Part shown: positions 35,833-63,112 of the stretch, in pieces
How positions within the stretch are numbered: the first letter of the stretch is position 1
Layout of the letters: the number at the start of each line of letters is the position of its first letter
UHGV virus genome: UHGV-0236300
Origin: a virus
DNA length: 64,000 nt
Reading direction: 5' to 3' (one strand)
Translations under genes and position numbers: made by a program
Notes under the pieces: model-generated
The model's database searches: none
Seen by the model: only the letters and a program-made list of their open reading frames with translations
Told to the model about the DNA's origin: nothing

Positions 35833-37176
35833 ATGAGTAAAACCAAATTAGAACTTACCTGGATAGGTAAGAACGAGCGCAAAAAGCTAGAGCCTCACAT
35901 TTTGTTAGAAGATTCGAGCAAGTCTTATTACGCCAGTAAAAAGGTGACCGAAAACGATATTTTTGATAATAAACTGATTTTTGGAGATAACTTACTGGCA
36001 TTGAAGGCACTAGAGCAAGAGTATGCAGGCAAAGTGAAGTGTGTTTACATAGACCCGCCATTCAATACCGGAAGGGATTTTGAGCACTACGATGATAGCC
36101 TGGAGCACTCCATTTGGCTGGGCTTAATGCGGGACAGATTAGAAATAATTCGTAATCTGCTAAGCGATGATGGAGTGATATTCGTTCACTTAGATGACTG
36201 CGAAATGGCTTATTTAAAAGTCTTGATGGACGAGATTTTTGGTCGTGCAAATCAGTTAAATACCATATCGATGACTACAAATTGCCCTTCAGGCTTTAAG
36301 GCAACAGGAACTACAGTTTTCTCCACAGCAAACTTTTTGCTTGTATATGCAAAAGATCGTACCAAGAAACCACTTAACAAAATCTATATACCTAAAGAGT
36401 ATGATACGGGATATAACAAATATCTATTAAACCCAGATGACCATTATAAAAGTTGGACGTGGTGCGGTATTGCCGATGCGTTTGCAAAGGCCAATGGCTA
36501 TAAAGATACAAAAGAAGCCAAGAAAAAACTGCCTGATACATTTGATGATGAATTAGCACAATTTGCAATTGATAATGCAGAACGTGTATTTCAATCCGTT
36601 GCAATTGGCGGTGGTGCCAAAATAAAGAGAAAAGAAACTATCGAGAAGTCAAAGAAAGATAGGGATAAGGTTTATGTACATCCAAATGAGGATGTCGAAG
36701 GCTTTTATATCGCAAATGGTAGGCAAATGGTCTTTTATTCCAATAGGCTTTTGGAAATTGACGGCAAGATGCAGCCTGCTGAACTAATAACTGATGTTTG
36801 GACTGACATTAGTTGGAATGGAATAGCAAATGAAGGCGGCGTTAGTTTCAAAAATGGAAAAAAGCCCGAAGCGCTTTTGAAGCGAATTTTCGAAATGTGT
36901 ACGCGAGAAGGAGATTTAGTCTTGGATTCATTCGGCGGTTCAGGAACTACTGCTGCCGTAGCTCACAAGATGAAAAGACGTTGGATCTCTGTCGAGTTAG
37001 GTGATCATTGTCATACCCATATCATCCCGCGCTTGCAAAAAGTGATCGATGGCAAAGATCAAAGTGGTATTTCTAAATCTGTAAACTGGCAAGGTGGCGG
37101 GGGCTTTCGCTATTACAAACTTGCCCCGAACTTAGTTATGAAAGATAAGCTTGACTCAGAAGAAGATTTAGAGTAA
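35833..37176 (+). CDS. DNA methyltransferase, N6-adenine/N4-cytosine class (DPPF motif)
   Basis: Motif IV VYIDPPFNTG; SAM-binding LDSFGGSGTTAAVA; RBS AAGGAGA. Confidence 0.85.
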   Translation: MSKTKLELTWIGKNERKKLEPHILLEDSSKSYYASKKVTENDIFDNKLIFGDNLLALKALEQEYAGKVKCVYIDPPFNTGRDFEHYDDSLEHSIWLGLMRDRLEIIRNLLSDDGVIFVHLDDCEMAYLKVLMDEIFGRANQLNTISMTTNCPSGFKATGTTVFSTANFLLVYAKDRTKKPLNKIYIPKEYDTGYNKYLLNPDDHYKSWTWCGIADAFAKANGYKDTKEAKKKLPDTFDDELAQFAIDNAERVFQSVAIGGGAKIKRKETIEKSKKDRDKVYVHPNEDVEGFYIANGRQMVFYSNRLLEIDGKMQPAELITDVWTDISWNGIANEGGVSFKNGKKPEALLKRIFEMCTREGDLVLDSFGGSGTTAAVAHKMKRRWISVELGDHCHTHIIPRLQKVIDGKDQSGISKSVNWQGGGGFRYYKLAPNLVMKDKLDSEEDLE

Positions 37177-38439: not shown

Positions 38440-38468
38440 GCCCTGCCCGAAAGGGTGGGGCTTTTTGC
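38440..38468 (+). terminator. rho-independent terminator
   Basis: GCCCTGCCC-GAAA-GGGTGGGGC hairpin plus T-run; near-identical copy at 49441. Confidence 0.7.
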
Positions 38469-38484
38469 ATTAGGAGACAGCAAA

Positions 38485-39249
38485 TTGAAATTTATCTACA
38501 AAGAACACTACCACAAAGGTGTCGTGTGGAGTCTATTTGACGGGTCTGGTGGTGCAGTTATTGACTGGGCAAAAGCTGGGTACCTGTGCCTGTGCTTTAA
38601 TGCAGAAGGTGCTGACCACGGTAGTTATGCAGAGGTGATAACCGATCATCCTAACATTCACTATGTGGATTATTGGATTGATCCATGGTTCCCTCAAGAA
38701 ACTTTTTGCATGTATCCAGCTCCAGACTTTATTCTTGCATTTCCTCCGTGCACGCATTTAGCAGTATCCGGAGCTGCACACTTTAAGAAAAAGCTGGCTA
38801 AGGACCCACTGATCCAAATTAATGCTGTGAAAGATGCTCGGGTTGCAGAAGAGTTGGGAGAGATTTATGATTGCCCGTGGCATGTAGAGAACCCTGTAGG
38901 AGTTATGTCAACACTGTGGCGAAAACCTGATTACCGTTTTCATCCTTCGGATTATGGTGGGTATCTACCAGAGGACGATGTAAACCCATGGTTTCCTGAA
39001 TTTATAGCTCCACGTGATGCCTACCCAAAAATAACTTGCGGTTGGATAGGCAATGGATTTATAATCCCCGCCACAAAACCTGTCCCGCAAATAGTTGATG
39101 TGGTTAGTGGTTATTCCATGCAACACGCTAAGCTAGGTGGAAAGAGTGCAAGGACGAAGATGATTCGAAGCCTTACACCACGTGGCTGGGCAAGAGCTGT
39201 ATTCTTAGCAAACGAGCCTGCAGTAAGGAGAAGAATTAATGGGCAGTAA
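38485..39249 (+). CDS. putative C5-cytosine DNA methyltransferase-like protein
   Basis: Motif I LFDGSGG, PC-type motif FPPCTH, ENV-like HVENPVG; TTG start 8 nt after AGGAG (track GTG 38455 lies inside terminator hairpin). Confidence 0.45.
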   Translation: MKFIYKEHYHKGVVWSLFDGSGGAVIDWAKAGYLCLCFNAEGADHGSYAEVITDHPNIHYVDYWIDPWFPQETFCMYPAPDFILAFPPCTHLAVSGAAHFKKKLAKDPLIQINAVKDARVAEELGEIYDCPWHVENPVGVMSTLWRKPDYRFHPSDYGGYLPEDDVNPWFPEFIAPRDAYPKITCGWIGNGFIIPATKPVPQIVDVVSGYSMQHAKLGGKSARTKMIRSLTPRGWARAVFLANEPAVRRRINGQ

Positions 39250-52447: not shown

Positions 52448-52637
52448 GCTTAAATCTGCATGGAACATTGCTGTGGGTGATGAGATCCGCATCCCTGGTG
52501 GGAAGACCGTTATGAAGATATCTCGTATTGAATACGAAGGCGACCGTGTATTCCACATCTTTGCAGAAGATGGTCGGGAAATTTATGTACAAGCGGGCTC
52601 TCACATCTATATCCGTAAGAAAGGGGATGACAAATGA
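52434..52637 (+). CDS. hypothetical protein
   Basis: RBS AAGGAGGG; short overlap with upstream gene. Confidence 0.5.
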   Translation: MQMFKLKSAWNIAVGDEIRIPGGKTVMKISRIEYEGDRVFHIFAEDGREIYVQAGSHIYIRKKGDDK

Positions 52638-52963
52638 CAGAGATCATTATTTCAACTGCAGGGTATGTATTCCTGACAATCATTGCTCTGACCATTTTGG
52701 TGGCGGTATATGGATTTGTTATTCTACCTATTCTTGAGACAATTAGTTTGTGTCGGTGTTGGAGAAAGGCTTACGGTCCACAGCCGTGGAGGGACTGGCC
52801 CCACCTGGTTCGCATAGCGTTCTCTTATGCTTATGATCACGCCAGCAGTGCATGCATAACCGGGTATCACGCTCACAATTGGAACTGGGAGGGGTTGGGT
52901 AGATGGAATGTTATAAAGACCATACCTCTACGTATGCACAAGCCTAAAAACAAAGACAGTTGA
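52634..52963 (+). CDS. hypothetical membrane protein
   Basis: ATGA overlap; hydrophobic N-terminal segment. Confidence 0.5.
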   Translation: MTEIIISTAGYVFLTIIALTILVAVYGFVILPILETISLCRCWRKAYGPQPWRDWPHLVRIAFSYAYDHASSACITGYHAHNWNWEGLGRWNVIKTIPLRMHKPKNKDS

Positions 52964-53008
52964 TACTTGAAAATCCCTGGCACATCAAGTATAAGGAGGA
53001 TTTCTAAA

Positions 53009-53116
53009 ATGGACTTCCTCCTTTTGATATTTTACCTGGCCGGATATTTTAAAATTCTTAGAAAATCAGAAAATGGATCGAAAACTAAAATGGATTTTTC
53101 AAGACAGGCGCGATAA
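53009..53116 (+). CDS. small hydrophobic peptide (35 aa)
   Basis: Not in ORF track; ATG 7 nt after AAGGAGGA; RBS lies in GGAGGA...TCCTCC inverted repeat. Confidence 0.35.
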   Translation: MDFLLLIFYLAGYFKILRKSENGSKTKMDFSRQAR

Positions 53117-53274
53117 GATGTGCTGCTCATTCTATCGTTCGCACCGTACTTTAAGTTACTATTCCAGATTTTCCGCACATACTCTCACCCTTCTACCAGA
53201 ACTTTCCCAGCTTACCTTTGACCCTTTATAACAATAAACCCATTATTCTCAGTAGGTTTTGATACATCTCTCTC

Positions 53275-53440
53275 AGTACTCGATCTGTTTTTCGTTTCAA
53301 AGATTGAATTTTCTGAAAATTTTTCTCGATAAATTTCTTAGTACTCGATCTGTTTTTCGTTTTCTGAATCAGATTTTCTGGAAATCGTTCCGGAGCTCGA
53401 CCTGAAATTTTTGGGGACGAAATCGATTTTTCGTTTTCGG
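53275..53440. repeat. direct repeats (23-bp iterons, each with a GATC site) in non-coding DNA
   Basis: AGTACTCGATCTGTTTTTCGTTT at 53275 and 53340; degenerate copies at 53392-53440. Confidence 0.6.
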
Positions 53441-53565
53441 AAATGGATTTTTAAAATTTGTATATGGAAATACTTAAGGAGGTATTATTTTATATAGAAT
53501 TGTCACGGTAGGTAATTAGCATGCTAACTAAATTTATGAAATGCGAAAAGTTCTCATTTAGAATT

Positions 53566-53584
53566 TTGAATGATAATCATTCTC
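53566..53584 (+). promoter_or_regulatory. Fur-box-like operator (copy 1)
   Basis: TTGAATGATAATCATTCTC matches 16 of 19 positions of Fur consensus GATAATGATAATCATTATC. Confidence 0.45.
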
Positions 53585-53698
53585 GTTTGCAGAATAACGG
53601 GCACCCCCGGTGATTGTCTCCCGGCCCCTGTTGCCCCGGCTTGTTATTATAGTATCACACAGGACAAAGAAAGCAAGGATTTTTTGCATAAATTTTTA

Positions 53699-53720
53699 AA
53701 TGATAATGATAACCGTTCTC
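53699..53720 (+). promoter_or_regulatory. Fur-box-like operator (copy 2)
   Basis: GATAATGATAACCGTTCTC matches 16 of 19 Fur consensus positions. Confidence 0.4.
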
Positions 53721-53941
53721 ATTTTATGCAGCGCCCATCCCCGGTGGTTGTCTCCCCCGTCACCGGTGCCTGCCGTCCTTTCGATAGGTATATTGTGCCA
53801 CCTGGCGGGGCCGCTGTCAACACTTTTCAAAAAAATTCTAACCTGATGCGCTAACCGTTGCAACCTGGCGGGGCCAGCCTGGCAGGGCTATGCTATAGGG
53901 TAGGCAACAACTGAAGAGGAGGTACAAAAATAAAAGGTAAT

Positions 53942-54103
53942 ATGATCCCTGGAAATGTAGCGATTAATGACGCTGAGGCTATCGCCCTGGTTGAAAAGGC
54001 TATGGCGGGAGCGTTGGAACATAAAGAAGAGTACGAAAAAATGATGGTTAACCTGGCAGGGGCGGCGGCTGGAGAATTCTGCCCAAAAAATAATTCTAAC
54101 TAA
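53942..54103 (+). CDS. small hypothetical protein (53 aa)
   Basis: Not in ORF track; ATG after GAAGAGGAGG. Confidence 0.45.
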   Translation: MIPGNVAINDAEAIALVEKAMAGALEHKEEYEKMMVNLAGAAAGEFCPKNNSN

Positions 54104-54186: not shown

Positions 54187-54384
54187 ATGAACGCCTACGG
54201 AATTAAAGTACGTCGCAACACTCGCCAGGCCGTCACCGATCAAATGATTTGCCAGGTGGACGTAACCATCAACAACGGGCAAGGCCTTTATAAATTCCGT
54301 CGCGGTCAGAGCTACACCCGGCAACAGCTTAATCGTTGCGCCCTGACAAAAGGCCAGATCAACCACTGGTTTAATAAAAAATAA
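54187..54384 (+). CDS. hypothetical small basic protein
   Basis: RBS GAGAGGA. Confidence 0.5.
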   Translation: MNAYGIKVRRNTRQAVTDQMICQVDVTINNGQGLYKFRRGQSYTRQQLNRCALTKGQINHWFNKK

Positions 54385-60100: not shown

Positions 60101-60622
60101 TTTTCTCCTCTTTGTCAAGTGCCGCATGAAAAATTTACAAACTGGTATGGTAGCATTTTTGCGGCCCTGTTTACATTCAGGAATGTATGTATAATCCTTG
60201 CTGTGTGGGCGTTTAGACGTCTGGACGGTCAGAAGTCAGCAGGTCAATATCTAATCTATTGGTTGCTAACTATATCCCACACAAATAGTAAGAAATATAA
60301 TTGTTATGTGCGTAAACAGTAACTCATGTTATCAATCCCTGTATGTATCGCCAGTGGTGCGCATAATGGGTATTATGTTAAATTGCCCGTAATGATAACC
60401 ATTCTCACAATGATAGGTATTCTCATTCATCCCCACAAGATAGATTGCAAATGTTGTGCCACTGTGTGAACGGCCTCACCTATTAATTTGCCTCACTGCC
60501 TCGATATTTGAGAATTATTATAAAAAATGAGAAGTATTCCCATTCCGTCCGCCTGGCAGCACTCCTGTAGGACAAGCACAACATCGGGGTATAACTGGAC
60601 CTGTTCAGATATTTCTGGCTGA

Positions 60623-61163
60623 CTCTTCAGGCCTGTGTGGGAAAAGCCAACCTCTCCGGCGGCGGGGAGGGGGGTCAATTAAAAAATTTACGTGGTGTAT
60701 GAAGCGCTCTTCAGGCAAGGTGTGTATTATGGGATGAAACCCTCTTCAGGTGATGATATTTGTGGGGGGATATTTGCTGGAAAGCCAGATATGACGGGGC
60801 TCCCGGCGGGGATGGGGTAGTACAGACAGGGAAAATGTGGGGATGTGGTGGGAGTAAATTGATCAAGTAGGTAGGATATGGAATATGTTACAAGTATGTT
60901 AAATATAGAGGTAGGATATTTGTGAGATTTGTGTGTAAAATCAAAGACTTAGGTGGTGTTGTGGTATTTTCTATAAATAATTCAAGTTTAATAGGTGATA
61001 TTTGTCTCCATCCACTTTGTGTGGTAAACAGCTCCTAATTGAATTGGTTTACAAGTGTATATAAAGTATACAAATTAAAGATATAAGAAACCCCCCTCCC
61101 CCTTCGGCTACCATTCACCTTTTCCTCTGACTGGTACTTAAACACTTATTCAGACTCTTCAGG
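60623..61163. repeat. dispersed CTCTTCAGG motif copies in G/T-rich non-coding DNA
   Basis: CTCTTCAGG at 60623, 60708, 60742 and 61155 (fifth at 61815), each followed by GT-rich tract. Confidence 0.55.
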
Positions 61164-61526
61164 TTATCACCCCTATACTATATGGCAGTGACTGGTGTCC
61201 TCCGGCCCCTCTTTCGCCACCCGTCCGCTTCGCCATGCTAATGCCATAGCCAAAGGTTCGGTTGTTCACCCTGTTCACTCAGGTGTATCTCCATACCCCT
61301 TCAAACCGAAGAGAACAGAAAACCCGAATTACTCGGTAAAAGAAAAGAGAAGAACTTAATTTTATCAAGATAGGCAAGAATGTCAAGGGATGACTGCTCA
61401 CTAAACAAGCAAACAGTCATGTGTGGTAGGTAAGTAACTGGGTTGGTAGGAAATTTAGTTGGAAGATGTTATAGGTGCCTCCAGAACCTTAGCTGGGCAG
61501 CTAAACCTGCAAAGCAGACTTGTGTG

Positions 61527-61742
61527 TCAGTCCAAAGGTTCATCTACTACTTCACTGAAATCAATGTTCAGGGTCTCTTCCCAACCATCAATCTCAGCAC
61601 CAGAGTAGAGATCTTTAGGGTCTACATCAAGGGCTTCCGCAACAGCATCTATATTTAACACTTCTGGCAGGTAAGATTCATCGAATTCAAGGTAAATCAG
61701 GCCACGAGTGTTGTCAGTCCCACCAAATATTTCTATTTTCAT
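61527..61742 (-). CDS. hypothetical small acidic protein
   Basis: ATG 5 nt after AGAGGAG (track start 61808 lacks RBS). Confidence 0.5.
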   Translation of the reverse strand: MKIEIFGGTDNTRGLIYLEFDESYLPEVLNIDAVAEALDVDPKDLYSGAEIDGWEETLNIDFSEVVDEPLD

Positions 61743-61862
61743 GAAATCTCCTCTGGAAATGAGAGTGTGAACAGGGTTTATACGTTCCAATACGCTGGAA
61801 TTATGCACGTTTGCCTCTTCAGGCCATGCTTTAGCATGATAAACTTATGTGGGCTCGGTGCT

Positions 61863-62048
61863 TCATAGTCTCCCACCTCTGAACTCTTCGTGCTCGGGCA
61901 TAATAGAGAACCAGATGGCTATGATATCTTCCCACGTTAGGTCATCAGCCTCAGGATCCACCTGGGACGGAGATAGAGAATCCTCAGAATTGAAGTTTTC
62001 CTCTATCACTCCTTCAGATGTCTCTGTAGATGCATGTGTGTTGGTCAT
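61863..62048 (-). CDS. hypothetical small acidic protein
   Basis: Minus-strand ORF consistent with neighbours. Confidence 0.35.
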   Translation of the reverse strand: MTNTHASTETSEGVIEENFNSEDSLSPSQVDPEADDLTWEDIIAIWFSIMPEHEEFRGGRL

Positions 62049-62546
62049 GTTCCACCCGTGAGTATTCCGGCAACATGTTTAAAAAATAAGACTTTATCAA
62101 CATATGGCCGGAACGTGTCGATGCCATAAGCATATTCCTGCAACAGCCGCTATGGACGTAATGATCATCAGGATCACCACTAAAACCTCTGACAATGTTT
62201 TCATTGTGTATTCCATATTATCCAAACAATGTGTGGATACTATCACAGGGGCGGTAATGTGTCAACAGAAGCGCCGCGAGGGTTTGGTTAAAATCCGAGC
62301 GTATGGTGATTTGGGTCAAAACGGGCGTGCGTTCTCGCTACGCTCGAAATAGAGAGTTGTTTGTAGGATGACTTTAAACGCTCTGTAAGGAGATTAATTG
62401 TCTAAGGTATGGAATCGTGCACCAGATAAAGAAAAGGACGCCACAGAGCGTCCTAGGTGCCTTAAATTTGATATTTTGCTATACCCATGAGGGCTTGTCT
62501 AGGTTGGAGTAACTGAAGGGGGTCAAAAGGTGACTGTCAAAATCTT

Positions 62547-62789
62547 TCAAACTGTCCAAGTCTTTTCCTCGTCCTGACACCATCTGTGCCTGCATTTATT
62601 GTTGTAGTGCATGGAATGCATAGCGTTCTGCAACTTAATAGGTACAAGTGATTCAGGAGTAGATAGAATTGTTGGGTATGCCAGGACTATCTCGAACAAT
62701 GGAAACACATCGAAACTGAAGTCTATTTCTGCTGAGGTTGCTGGCATATAGGAGTATTTAGCTGTCGTTGTAGACATAATCCACCTCAC
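62547..62789 (-). CDS. hypothetical protein
   Basis: GTG start overlapping stop of upstream gene (GTGA); alternative ATG at 62777. Confidence 0.45.
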   Translation of the reverse strand: MRWIMSTTTAKYSYMPATSAEIDFSFDVFPLFEIVLAYPTILSTPESLVPIKLQNAMHSMHYNNKCRHRWCQDEEKTWTV

Positions 62790-63112
62790 ACAGGCTTGAT
62801 AATACCTTCACCGAATAACTCTTCATATTTAATCTTATCAGGATCCCACTCCTGGATAATTTCGAAGACAATATCCAGCCCAGGGATAATCACTTCTCCG
62901 GTATCAAGTCTGGCAAGAACAAAACCGGAAGGTTGAATGGTTTCCCAGTTGCGACGATTAGAATAGAGAACTTCGAAAATATCGCCAACCGCAATCTGCT
63001 GATCAAGGTGCTCAAGATTCTCTTTCATATAAACGCAGCGTATTTTCCGTGCAGGCCACAGGCCCCCTGCATCACGTTCATTTAGCTCTTTTACAGTAAT
63101 CGGCATTAGCAT
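62786..63112 (-). CDS. hypothetical protein
   Basis: 108-aa minus-strand ORF. Confidence 0.5.
   Translation of the reverse strand: MLMPITVKELNERDAGGLWPARKIRCVYMKENLEHLDQQIAVGDIFEVLYSNRRNWETIQPSGFVLARLDTGEVIIPGLDIVFEIIQEWDPDKIKYEELFGEGIIKPV

Follow-up and report, generated by a model that had tools for sequence, protein, structure and literature searches.

A conserved non-coding repeat array of Vequintavirinae as a candidate replication origin

The subject of this report is an array of direct repeats in the virus genome UHGV-0236300, of which a stretch of 64,000 nucleotides was analysed (the window). The window comes from a Vequintavirus, an rV5-like myovirus of Escherichia coli: phage B9-1 is 99.9% identical over the query, and 122 phage records match. 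The array lies inside a gene-poor gap of 1.2 kb, bounded by a homologue of rV5 gp195 (52634-52963) on one side and by a 65-aa gene (54187-54384) on the other. All flanking genes are encoded on the plus strand and fall within the long early transcription unit that has been proposed for rV5. We found no informative domains in the neighbouring genes, and their functions are unassigned. In the rV5 genome paper an origin was sought by skew analysis and none was located. The "non-coding" box of the rV5 paper marks another site, a convergent gap of 2.6 kb that corresponds to about 60.3-62.8 kb of the window. In the papers that were searched, we found no description of the array, of the module around it, or of Fur boxes in lytic phages.

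Repeat units and their surroundings

A preliminary description of this DNA had reported 23-bp direct repeats in an interval free of open reading frames (ORFs). These repeats are real. The sequence AGTACTCGATCTGTTTTTCGTTT occurs at 53275-53297 and 53340-53362 with a spacing of 65 bp, and has no further match at up to three mismatches in 64 kb (0 expected). A second sequence, ATTTTCTGRAAAT, occurs at 53308 and 53373. The repeat exceeds 23 bp, and the array is better described as three degenerate tandem units on the plus strand: U1 (53266-53330), U2 (53331-53404) and U3 (53405-53470). These units self-align over about 116 nt with about 70% identity (internal blastn, E about 4e-9). U1 and U2 each contain one copy of the 23-mer, and U1 ends in the A/T tract GAAAATTTTTC. 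U3 contains a 16-bp hairpin or palindrome (53407-53444) with five G.U pairs on the plus strand, and is homologous to units of the type found in Erwinia phage Hena1 (GGGGAC..TTTTTC..TGGAWTTT). Two degenerate copies had also been proposed downstream of the 23-mers. One of them, ACGAAATCGATTTTTCGTTTTCGG in U3, is nearly invariant in 19 relatives; the other, GAGCTCGACCTG, falls in a variable patch and does not count as a conserved copy.

The array is embedded in a series of distinct elements; those upstream of it are placed on the plus strand. Two copies of the 7-mer GATATTT start at 53026 and 53043 (53026-53049). The second overlaps a left block (53040-53100) that consists of phased GAAAAT tracts with a GATC site at 53076 and contains a fourth copy of the unit, inverted and degenerate. 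The predicted duplex between this block and 53327-53394 has an energy of -35.8 kcal/mol, compared with -26 ± 3.3 kcal/mol for shuffled sequences (z about -3 on both strands), and this is the best partner of the block in the window. A fast-evolving spacer of fixed length, rich in C and poor in G, follows at 53117-53274. Directly after the array lies an AT-rich segment (53447-53515), a candidate DNA-unwinding element, and then an 18-bp palindrome, TAATTAGCATGCTAACTA (53513-53530), which is perfect in some relatives.

The array stretch is non-coding. As had been noted from the start, neither strand has an ORF of at least 60 aa between 53117 and 53570. Substitutions lack codon periodicity: variable sites at the three codon phases number 12/15/9 for the array, 5/8/7 for the AT-rich part and 26/25/21 for the spacer, and 5/11/5 for the neighbouring gene. 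Because of the 65-bp offset, the two 23-mers fall into different reading frames. The T run at 53094 varies by single-base indels, and phage Alma has a 1-nt insertion in unit 2. Small ORFs that some records annotate here start and end at different positions in different genomes, and a search for an ORF kept across genera at the sampled loci found none. Given the lack of codon periodicity, the frame offset, the indels and the shifting ORF ends, we rejected a coding explanation for the array.

Conservation and insertion tolerance

Conservation within the genus was assessed in alignments of 12 and then 19 vequintaviruses. The array (53275-53470) shows a divergence of 0.05-0.09, on par with coding DNA, whereas pairwise divergence in the adjacent spacer reaches 0.23. 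This difference indicates that the array is under strong purifying selection. The core of unit 2 and its flanks (about 53304-53372) are almost unchanged in the 19 genomes, with few exceptions that map chiefly to the inter-unit junction at 53337-53340. The tail of unit 2 (53385-53405) is variable, and copy 1 of the 23-mer carries three substitutions in the rV5/FFH2 group. No other 50 bp of the 3.4-kb alignment are as conserved as positions 53044-53093 of the left block (divergence 0.009), and a GC-rich stretch downstream of the array (53536-53790) is also highly conserved. The spacer is constant in length (157-158 nt) and composition (C 30-34%, G 10-13%, C/G ratio 2.3-3.1) in all 12 relatives. 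It is the most pyrimidine-rich plus-strand stretch among the plus-strand genes, and its composition resembles that of a Rho-loading site.

Comparison with related phages, a check suggested by the preliminary description, revealed that the array is conserved and that it is not coding in the relatives. A homologous array of tandem units occurs at the same place, directly upstream of a Fur-like element (see below), in all six Vequintavirinae groups sampled. We aligned 29 units from nine phages of these six groups. Most arrays contain three units, two of the nine phages have four, and the period ranges from 65 to 78 bp. The unit core reads GG(T/A)(T/A)CTCGATCG-NN-TTTTC-NNN-TTC-N-A-N-A(T/A)CGTATTTT, or in a shorter notation GGWWCTCGATCG-NN-TTTTC-NNN-TTC...WCGTATTTT, and the 23-mer of the window corresponds to this core. 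In most genera an A5-6T5-6 tract follows. Farther upstream, all genera contain a phased A-tract block homologous to the left block of the window. The 7-mer GATATTT(G/T) is also found at the same place in every sampled genus, in two to five same-strand copies that are often about 10-14 bp apart; the window as a whole contains 27 copies of GATATTT versus 11.9 expected. The gene upstream of the module varies by genus. It belongs to one of two unrelated uncharacterised families or encodes an HNH-AP2 homing endonuclease, and no homologue of these upstream proteins was found in the window. Since the upstream gene differs from genus to genus, the non-coding architecture must be conserved independently of its flanks.

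Published transposon-sequencing data for Bas54 (phage MaxBurger), which is 84% identical to the window over this stretch, allowed us to ask how well the locus tolerates insertions. These gene-level data were mapped to the window by means of the GenBank record and counts of TA sites. The homologue of gp195 (52634-52963) is hit at 18 of 21 TA sites (mean 220) and scored as non-essential. The 48-aa ORF bas54_0100, which covers U1 and U2 (53259-53405), is hit at one of three sites (mean 5), too few sites to classify. No insertion was recovered at any of the 11 sites (53452-53513) of the 34-aa ORF bas54_0101 (53411-53515; mean 0), which was scored as essential. Farther downstream, bas54_0102 (53570-53841) is hit at 5/15 sites (mean 12.7; strong fitness defect), bas54_0103 (53930-54103) at 12/14 (mean 152; intermediate), and the next gene (54187-54384) at 13/13 (mean 563; non-essential). 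Counts in the array are about 40-fold below those of the neighbours (mean 5 versus 150-560), and the most insertion-intolerant part is the AT-rich segment directly after the array. The marker carried by the transposon comes with a promoter of its own and lacks a terminator, so silent DNA cannot account for the missing insertions. Insertions are tolerated just upstream, which argues against a polar effect. Taken together with the non-coding status of the stretch, the intolerance points to an essential or near-essential non-coding element. The Bas54 study treated the ORFs at this locus as hypothetical genes and commented only on another intergenic region. Three "hypothetical proteins" that scored as essential or fitness-relevant in this screen are thus almost certainly non-coding DNA.

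Beyond the genus, blastn with the whole gap as a query detects one part only, about 90-150 bp at 53536-53685. This element is 70-92% identical in Mydovirus, Seunavirus, Certrevirus, Henunavirus, a Serratia phage, phAPEC8-like phages and an Aeromonas phage. Its two palindromes are Fur-like, of 7-1-7 form, and lie about 29-31 bp apart; in five of the six genera aligned, a -10-like TAnnAT separates them. The window contains two tandem copies of the element on the plus strand. Copy 1 (53536-53690) comprises the palindromes TGCGAAAaGTTCTCA (53542-53556) and TGATAATcATTCTCG (53571-53585), the hexamer TAGAAT between them (53559-53564), and then GTTTGCAGAATAACGGGCA and a GC-rich part. Copy 2 (53690-53830), about 135 bp downstream, contains the Fur-like box GATAATGATAACCGTTCTC (53702-53720). 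By hand count, 15 of 19 positions of the copy-1 box agree with the 19-mer consensus for E. coli Fur. The copy-2 box agrees at 16 of 19, and is the only match at up to three mismatches in the window (0.01 expected). A homologue of bas54_0102 in a Klebsiella phage has an early in-frame stop, so this element is non-coding as well. In lytic phages, it may act as a promoter that responds to iron through Fur.

Similar boxes occur at a second site in the window. The convergent non-coding region at 60300-62800 starts with two more palindromic boxes (60391-60407 and 60409-60425); overall, the box pattern has five matches at four distinct sites of the window, compared with 0.33 expected. This region also contains six same-strand copies of GATATTT (60503-60997). 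The Bas54 transposon paper reports that the convergent intergenic region of about 2 kb is likewise without insertions. The two insertion-free non-coding regions therefore have GATATTT repeats and Fur-like palindromes in common; the 40-nt unit core is found at the 53-kb locus only.

Two related loci deserve mention. In phAPEC8 (Stephanstirmvirinae), the locus at 1230-1560 contains four Fur-like boxes with 29-bp spacing. Upstream of these boxes lies a different A/T-rich repeat, with two 72-nt copies at a distance of 138 bp, so that the architecture is analogous and the repeats are non-homologous. In the Klebsiella phage record OY978796, the homologue of the element (1504-1576) is annotated as "tRNA-Met"; ARAGORN finds no tRNA there.

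Origin reading and its alternatives

The AT-rich segment stands out by its predicted duplex stability. Positions 53447-53496 form the least stable 50-bp duplex of the 64-kb window, and the segment ranks second when 100-bp duplexes are compared. By this prediction, the segment would qualify as the AT-rich unwinding element of an iteron-type origin. At six of eight loci from other genera (3 kb each), the module contains or adjoins a 50-mer that ranks lowest or second lowest in stability, and its exact spot varies. Another hallmark of such origins, direct repeats in one orientation within a non-coding stretch, is present here as three units with an atypical period.

On this basis we tentatively propose that the array and its adjoining parts form an essential cis-acting DNA module, most likely a replication origin. 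Alternatively, the module could supply one of the two halves of a bipartite origin, or have some other essential function in cis. It begins with the GATATTT repeats and the phased A-tract block; after the spacer come three units, each about 70 bp long, then the AT-rich segment and finally the pair of Fur-like palindromes on either side of the -10-like hexamer. Within each unit, a GATC/TCGA box is combined with T-rich DNA and an A(n)T(n) tract. In this model, the units would be the binding sites of a protein from the phage or its host that wraps or bends the DNA, after which the adjacent AT-rich segment would open. Transcription arriving from the upstream operon, or initiated at the palindrome-flanked promoter, would assist the start of synthesis. 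Protein binding, DNA opening, initiation of replication and any role of Dam methylation are what we infer. The proposal draws on the combination of same-orientation units with an inverted copy, 7-mers spaced by roughly a helical turn, A(n)T(n) tracts and a meltable essential segment. It also draws on the promoter-like neighbour, on the independence of the module from its flanking genes, and on its conservation throughout a subfamily that shares replication proteins.

The preliminary description had interpreted the repeats as a replication origin or a regulated binding array, with emphasis on Dam-type GATC sites. The origin part of this interpretation gains from the non-coding, conserved nature of the array, from its position next to AT-rich DNA that is predicted to melt, and from its insertion intolerance in Bas54; the absence of DnaA boxes and of an adjacent initiator counts against it. 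The emphasis on GATC holds only in part. GATC is over-represented in the window as a whole (288 versus 224 ± 15 expected), and the 205 bp of the array contain two sites (about 0.9 expected) which lie 65 bp apart because the unit itself is repeated. Arrays of about 220 bp in Mydovirus, Seunavirus, Certrevirus and the Serratia phage contain four to seven sites, often in pairs exactly 20 bp apart, and the array of Hena1 contains none. These distributions make a role of Dam and SeqA plausible in most genera, and GATC is not a defining feature of the array.

Several observations weigh against an origin. No DnaA box (TTWTNCACA) occurs within 6 kb of the array, and the window contains four where 8.4 are expected. 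We considered GATCTGTTTTTCG as an oriC-type 13-mer and rejected it, as its match is at chance level window-wide. No initiator-like gene adjoins the array. The period of 65-76 bp and the count of only three units are unlike classical iterons of about 20 bp. Nucleotide skew offers no help as a signal of replication direction. Genes between 54187 and 60322 have a GC skew at third codon positions (GC3 skew) of about -0.1 to -0.18 and a third-position GC content (GC3) of up to 0.55-0.57, whereas in the other modules compared (26247-52963) the GC3 skew is mostly within 0.05 of zero and GC3 is about 0.44. This contrast makes the locus a compositional module boundary. The GC/AT skew was rejected as a replication signal, since the third-position shift tracks gene modules and minus-strand genes show the same coding-oriented skew. 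The Bas54 counts are gene-level and the array offers only three TA sites; in addition, the transposon has an outward promoter without a terminator, so the intolerance could partly reflect unwanted transcription instead of disruption. Finally, consensus folding that is specific to the plus strand hints at a role in RNA.

This last point bears on a reading in which the stretch acts as a plus-strand RNA: the left block would pair with unit 2 over about 60 nt, U3 would form its hairpin and the C-rich spacer would load Rho, together making an attenuator, insulator or RNase III site between two early units. The plus-strand orientation of all flanking genes would suit such an element, as would the spacer, which is rich in C and poor in G in every relative even at 23% divergence. 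Consensus folding of 18 sequences against column-shuffled controls yields z = -3.6 on the plus strand versus -0.3 on the minus strand. Individual hairpins also score well: one at 52990-53027, which sequesters the ribosome-binding site of a small ORF, has an alifold z of -3.9, and the U3 hairpin has -3.4 on the plus and -2.2 on the minus strand. Single-sequence folding of the region, on the other hand, gives z about 0. Substitution support for the predicted helices was rejected, because by hand tally eight events retain pairing and four break it, which equals the chance expectation (about 0.62). The complementarity between the left block and unit 2 is equally significant on the minus strand and thus looks like a property of the DNA. 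No common hairpin is kept among the units of other genera. The U3 hairpin does not resemble an intrinsic terminator either: its 16-bp stem has only three G-C pairs and its U tract begins 3 nt past a weak A-U base, whereas the clear terminators of this phage are short GC-rich stems. The near-invariance of the sequence also goes beyond what RNA structure alone requires. An Rfam scan of the gap returned three chance-level hits only (E at least 1), and a tRNA scan found none in the window and none at the loci where one record annotates "tRNA-Met". A role in RNA is possible and would be secondary; as the explanation of the locus we consider it improbable.

A regulatory function at the DNA level is unlikely too, but it has more in its favour. 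Here the array would serve as an enhancer or operator for the promoter flanked by the Fur-like palindromes, and a non-coding transcript or a function further downstream would be what the phage needs. An activator or nucleoid protein bound to the array would set the activity of the promoter, perhaps according to iron supply. In every genus compared, the array is accompanied by the Fur-like element, with unchanged order and orientation, and the recurrent -10-like hexamer fits a promoter. No other DNA of the gap is conserved as widely as this element, insertions into which strongly impair fitness, and its boxes recur at 60391 and 60409. The distribution of insertions, however, is the reverse of what an essential transcript predicts, with 0/11 sites hit 25-85 bp upstream of the -35 region versus 5/15 inside the putative transcript. 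The -35 region is poor and not conserved, and consensus folding of the downstream element is weak and inconsistent between its two copies. We regard it as highly improbable that the module is instead a packaging initiation (pac) site at which terminase binds repeated, bent DNA. Such a site would likewise be essential in cis and could contain repeats, A(n)T(n) tracts and GATC-containing repeats; the pac site of phage P1 carries GATC-containing repeats. The genome of the related phage PhiTE is terminally redundant and circularly permuted, and three database records break inside the 1.2-kb gap. About two breaks are expected by chance among some 267 records, the small terminase gene, the usual location of pac, is far away, and the predicted intrinsic curvature is moderate (about the 98th percentile, no outlier). 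That bas54_0100 and bas54_0101 encode essential micro-proteins, with the repeats being incidental, is hardly credible: the two ORFs are open in most vequintaviruses and bas54_0101 scored as an essential gene, but they start with TTG or GTG, have no ribosome-binding site, vary in their starts and ends, and share the lack of codon periodicity, the Alma frameshift and the frame offset of the repeats described above. Across genera the DNA repeat is kept and no ORF is, and the in-frame stop in the Klebsiella phage homologue of bas54_0102 points the same way. It is equally far-fetched that the array is a nucleation site at which H-NS (or StpA) silences or insulates the stretch. The published high-affinity motif tCGATAAATT does occur exactly, as TCGATAAATT at 53326-53335, in AT-rich DNA with four TCGAT motifs; no other exact copy exists in the window, and the motif does not vary among 19 relatives. 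This match was found post hoc, allowing one mismatch gives eight matches versus 4.8 expected, and the motif is absent from the cross-genus unit consensus.

As a candidate origin, the module is best compared with iteron origins that adjoin AT-rich DNA, such as lambda ori, P1 oriR, pSC101, R6K and F. It shares with them same-orientation repeats beside a meltable AT-rich segment, an inverted copy nearby, and a non-coding, presumably cis-acting nature; GATC sites within repeats are also a feature of P1 oriR and oriC. Iteron origins differ in having repeats phased at about 20 bp in at least four copies, whereas here three units lie about 65-76 bp apart with no adjacent initiator gene and no DnaA boxes. 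P4 ori/crr and SPP1 oriL/oriR each consist of two distant sites that share repeats. The two non-coding regions of the window, at 53.0-53.9 and 60.3-62.8 kb, are about 7 kb apart, insertion-free in Bas54, and equipped with GATATTT repeats and palindromic boxes, which recalls these two-site origins. The units of about 70 bp occur at one site only, so the analogy comes from motif sharing alone. T4 oriF/oriG and the primary origin of T7 resemble the locus in placing a promoter-like element beside an AT-rich segment, in a lytic phage that encodes a T7-like polymerase and primase-helicase; in contrast to those origins, which lack a three-unit array, the promoter-like element here follows the AT-rich segment and is directed away from it. 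In P1 pac, clusters of short GATC-containing repeats flank the functional centre and activity is Dam-sensitive, whereas the present array is far from the terminase genes, and GATC is low in this genus and zero in Hena1. Tandem non-coding repeats are also known as ToxI arrays, including the pseudo-ToxI of PhiTE, a phage of the same subfamily. Those units are 36 nt long and nearly identical, and the array here has no Rfam match. An antitoxin mimic of this kind was rejected, because the pseudo-ToxI of PhiTE sits at a different locus.

A bolder version of the origin proposal, which we consider rather doubtful, would unite all of these features. The array, the AT-rich segment and the twin Fur-like boxes would constitute one essential replication-control module of Vequintavirinae, with parts of it present in related large lytic phages. 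It would act together with the second site 7 kb away, and its firing would be tied to Fur, and hence iron, and in most genera to Dam and SeqA acting on paired GATC sites.

If the locus is an origin, it would belong to the kind that combines repeats with an unwinding element, with units of unusually long period and no adjacent initiator. The rV5-like phages are widely isolated and used in therapy cocktails, and for their origin the locus provides a precise candidate of about 0.6 kb with defined motifs. An origin at this place would enable phage-dependent replicons and rational engineering of rV5-like phages. A true link to Fur would mean that an essential function of a lytic phage is tied to the iron status of its host.

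Other features of the locus

The gap contains further small features. Upstream of the array, an ORF of 35 aa (53009-53116) has a strong ribosome-binding site that is held in an 8-bp hairpin (AAGGAGGA with TCCTCCTT). A T5/T6 run (53094-53099) varies in relatives and shifts the frame, so that the product has 35 aa in some phages and 70-84 aa in others. Because its 3' half coincides with the invariant left block, this ORF may not be a real gene, or it may encode a leader peptide. Downstream, the small gene at 53927-54103 (bas54_0103 in relatives) has ATA in place of the ATG start in this phage, and its ORF begins only at 53942. Several relatives have a 48-bp insertion at 53884 plus frameshifting single-base indels in this gene.

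A conserved sigma-70 promoter was sought inside the array and not found. On the minus strand downstream of the array, two conserved sigma-70-like promoters point to the left. One (TTGACA-17-CACAAT with TG) extends from 53820 to 53792, and the other (TTGCAA-17-TAGAAT) from 53863 to 53835. Each overlaps one copy of the repeat ACCTGGCGGGGCC, at about 53800 and about 53862.

Elsewhere in the window, an N6/N4-type DNA methyltransferase is encoded at 35833-37176 (PF01555), and a second annotated methyltransferase at 38455-39249 has no Pfam hit. Two observations concern the database records used for comparison. Sixteen records labelled "Campylobacter phage" (MG0656xx) are about 90% identical to E. 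coli vequintaviruses. Record PQ002170 is filed under Demerecviridae, and its aligned stretch matches Seunavirus GEC_vB_MG.

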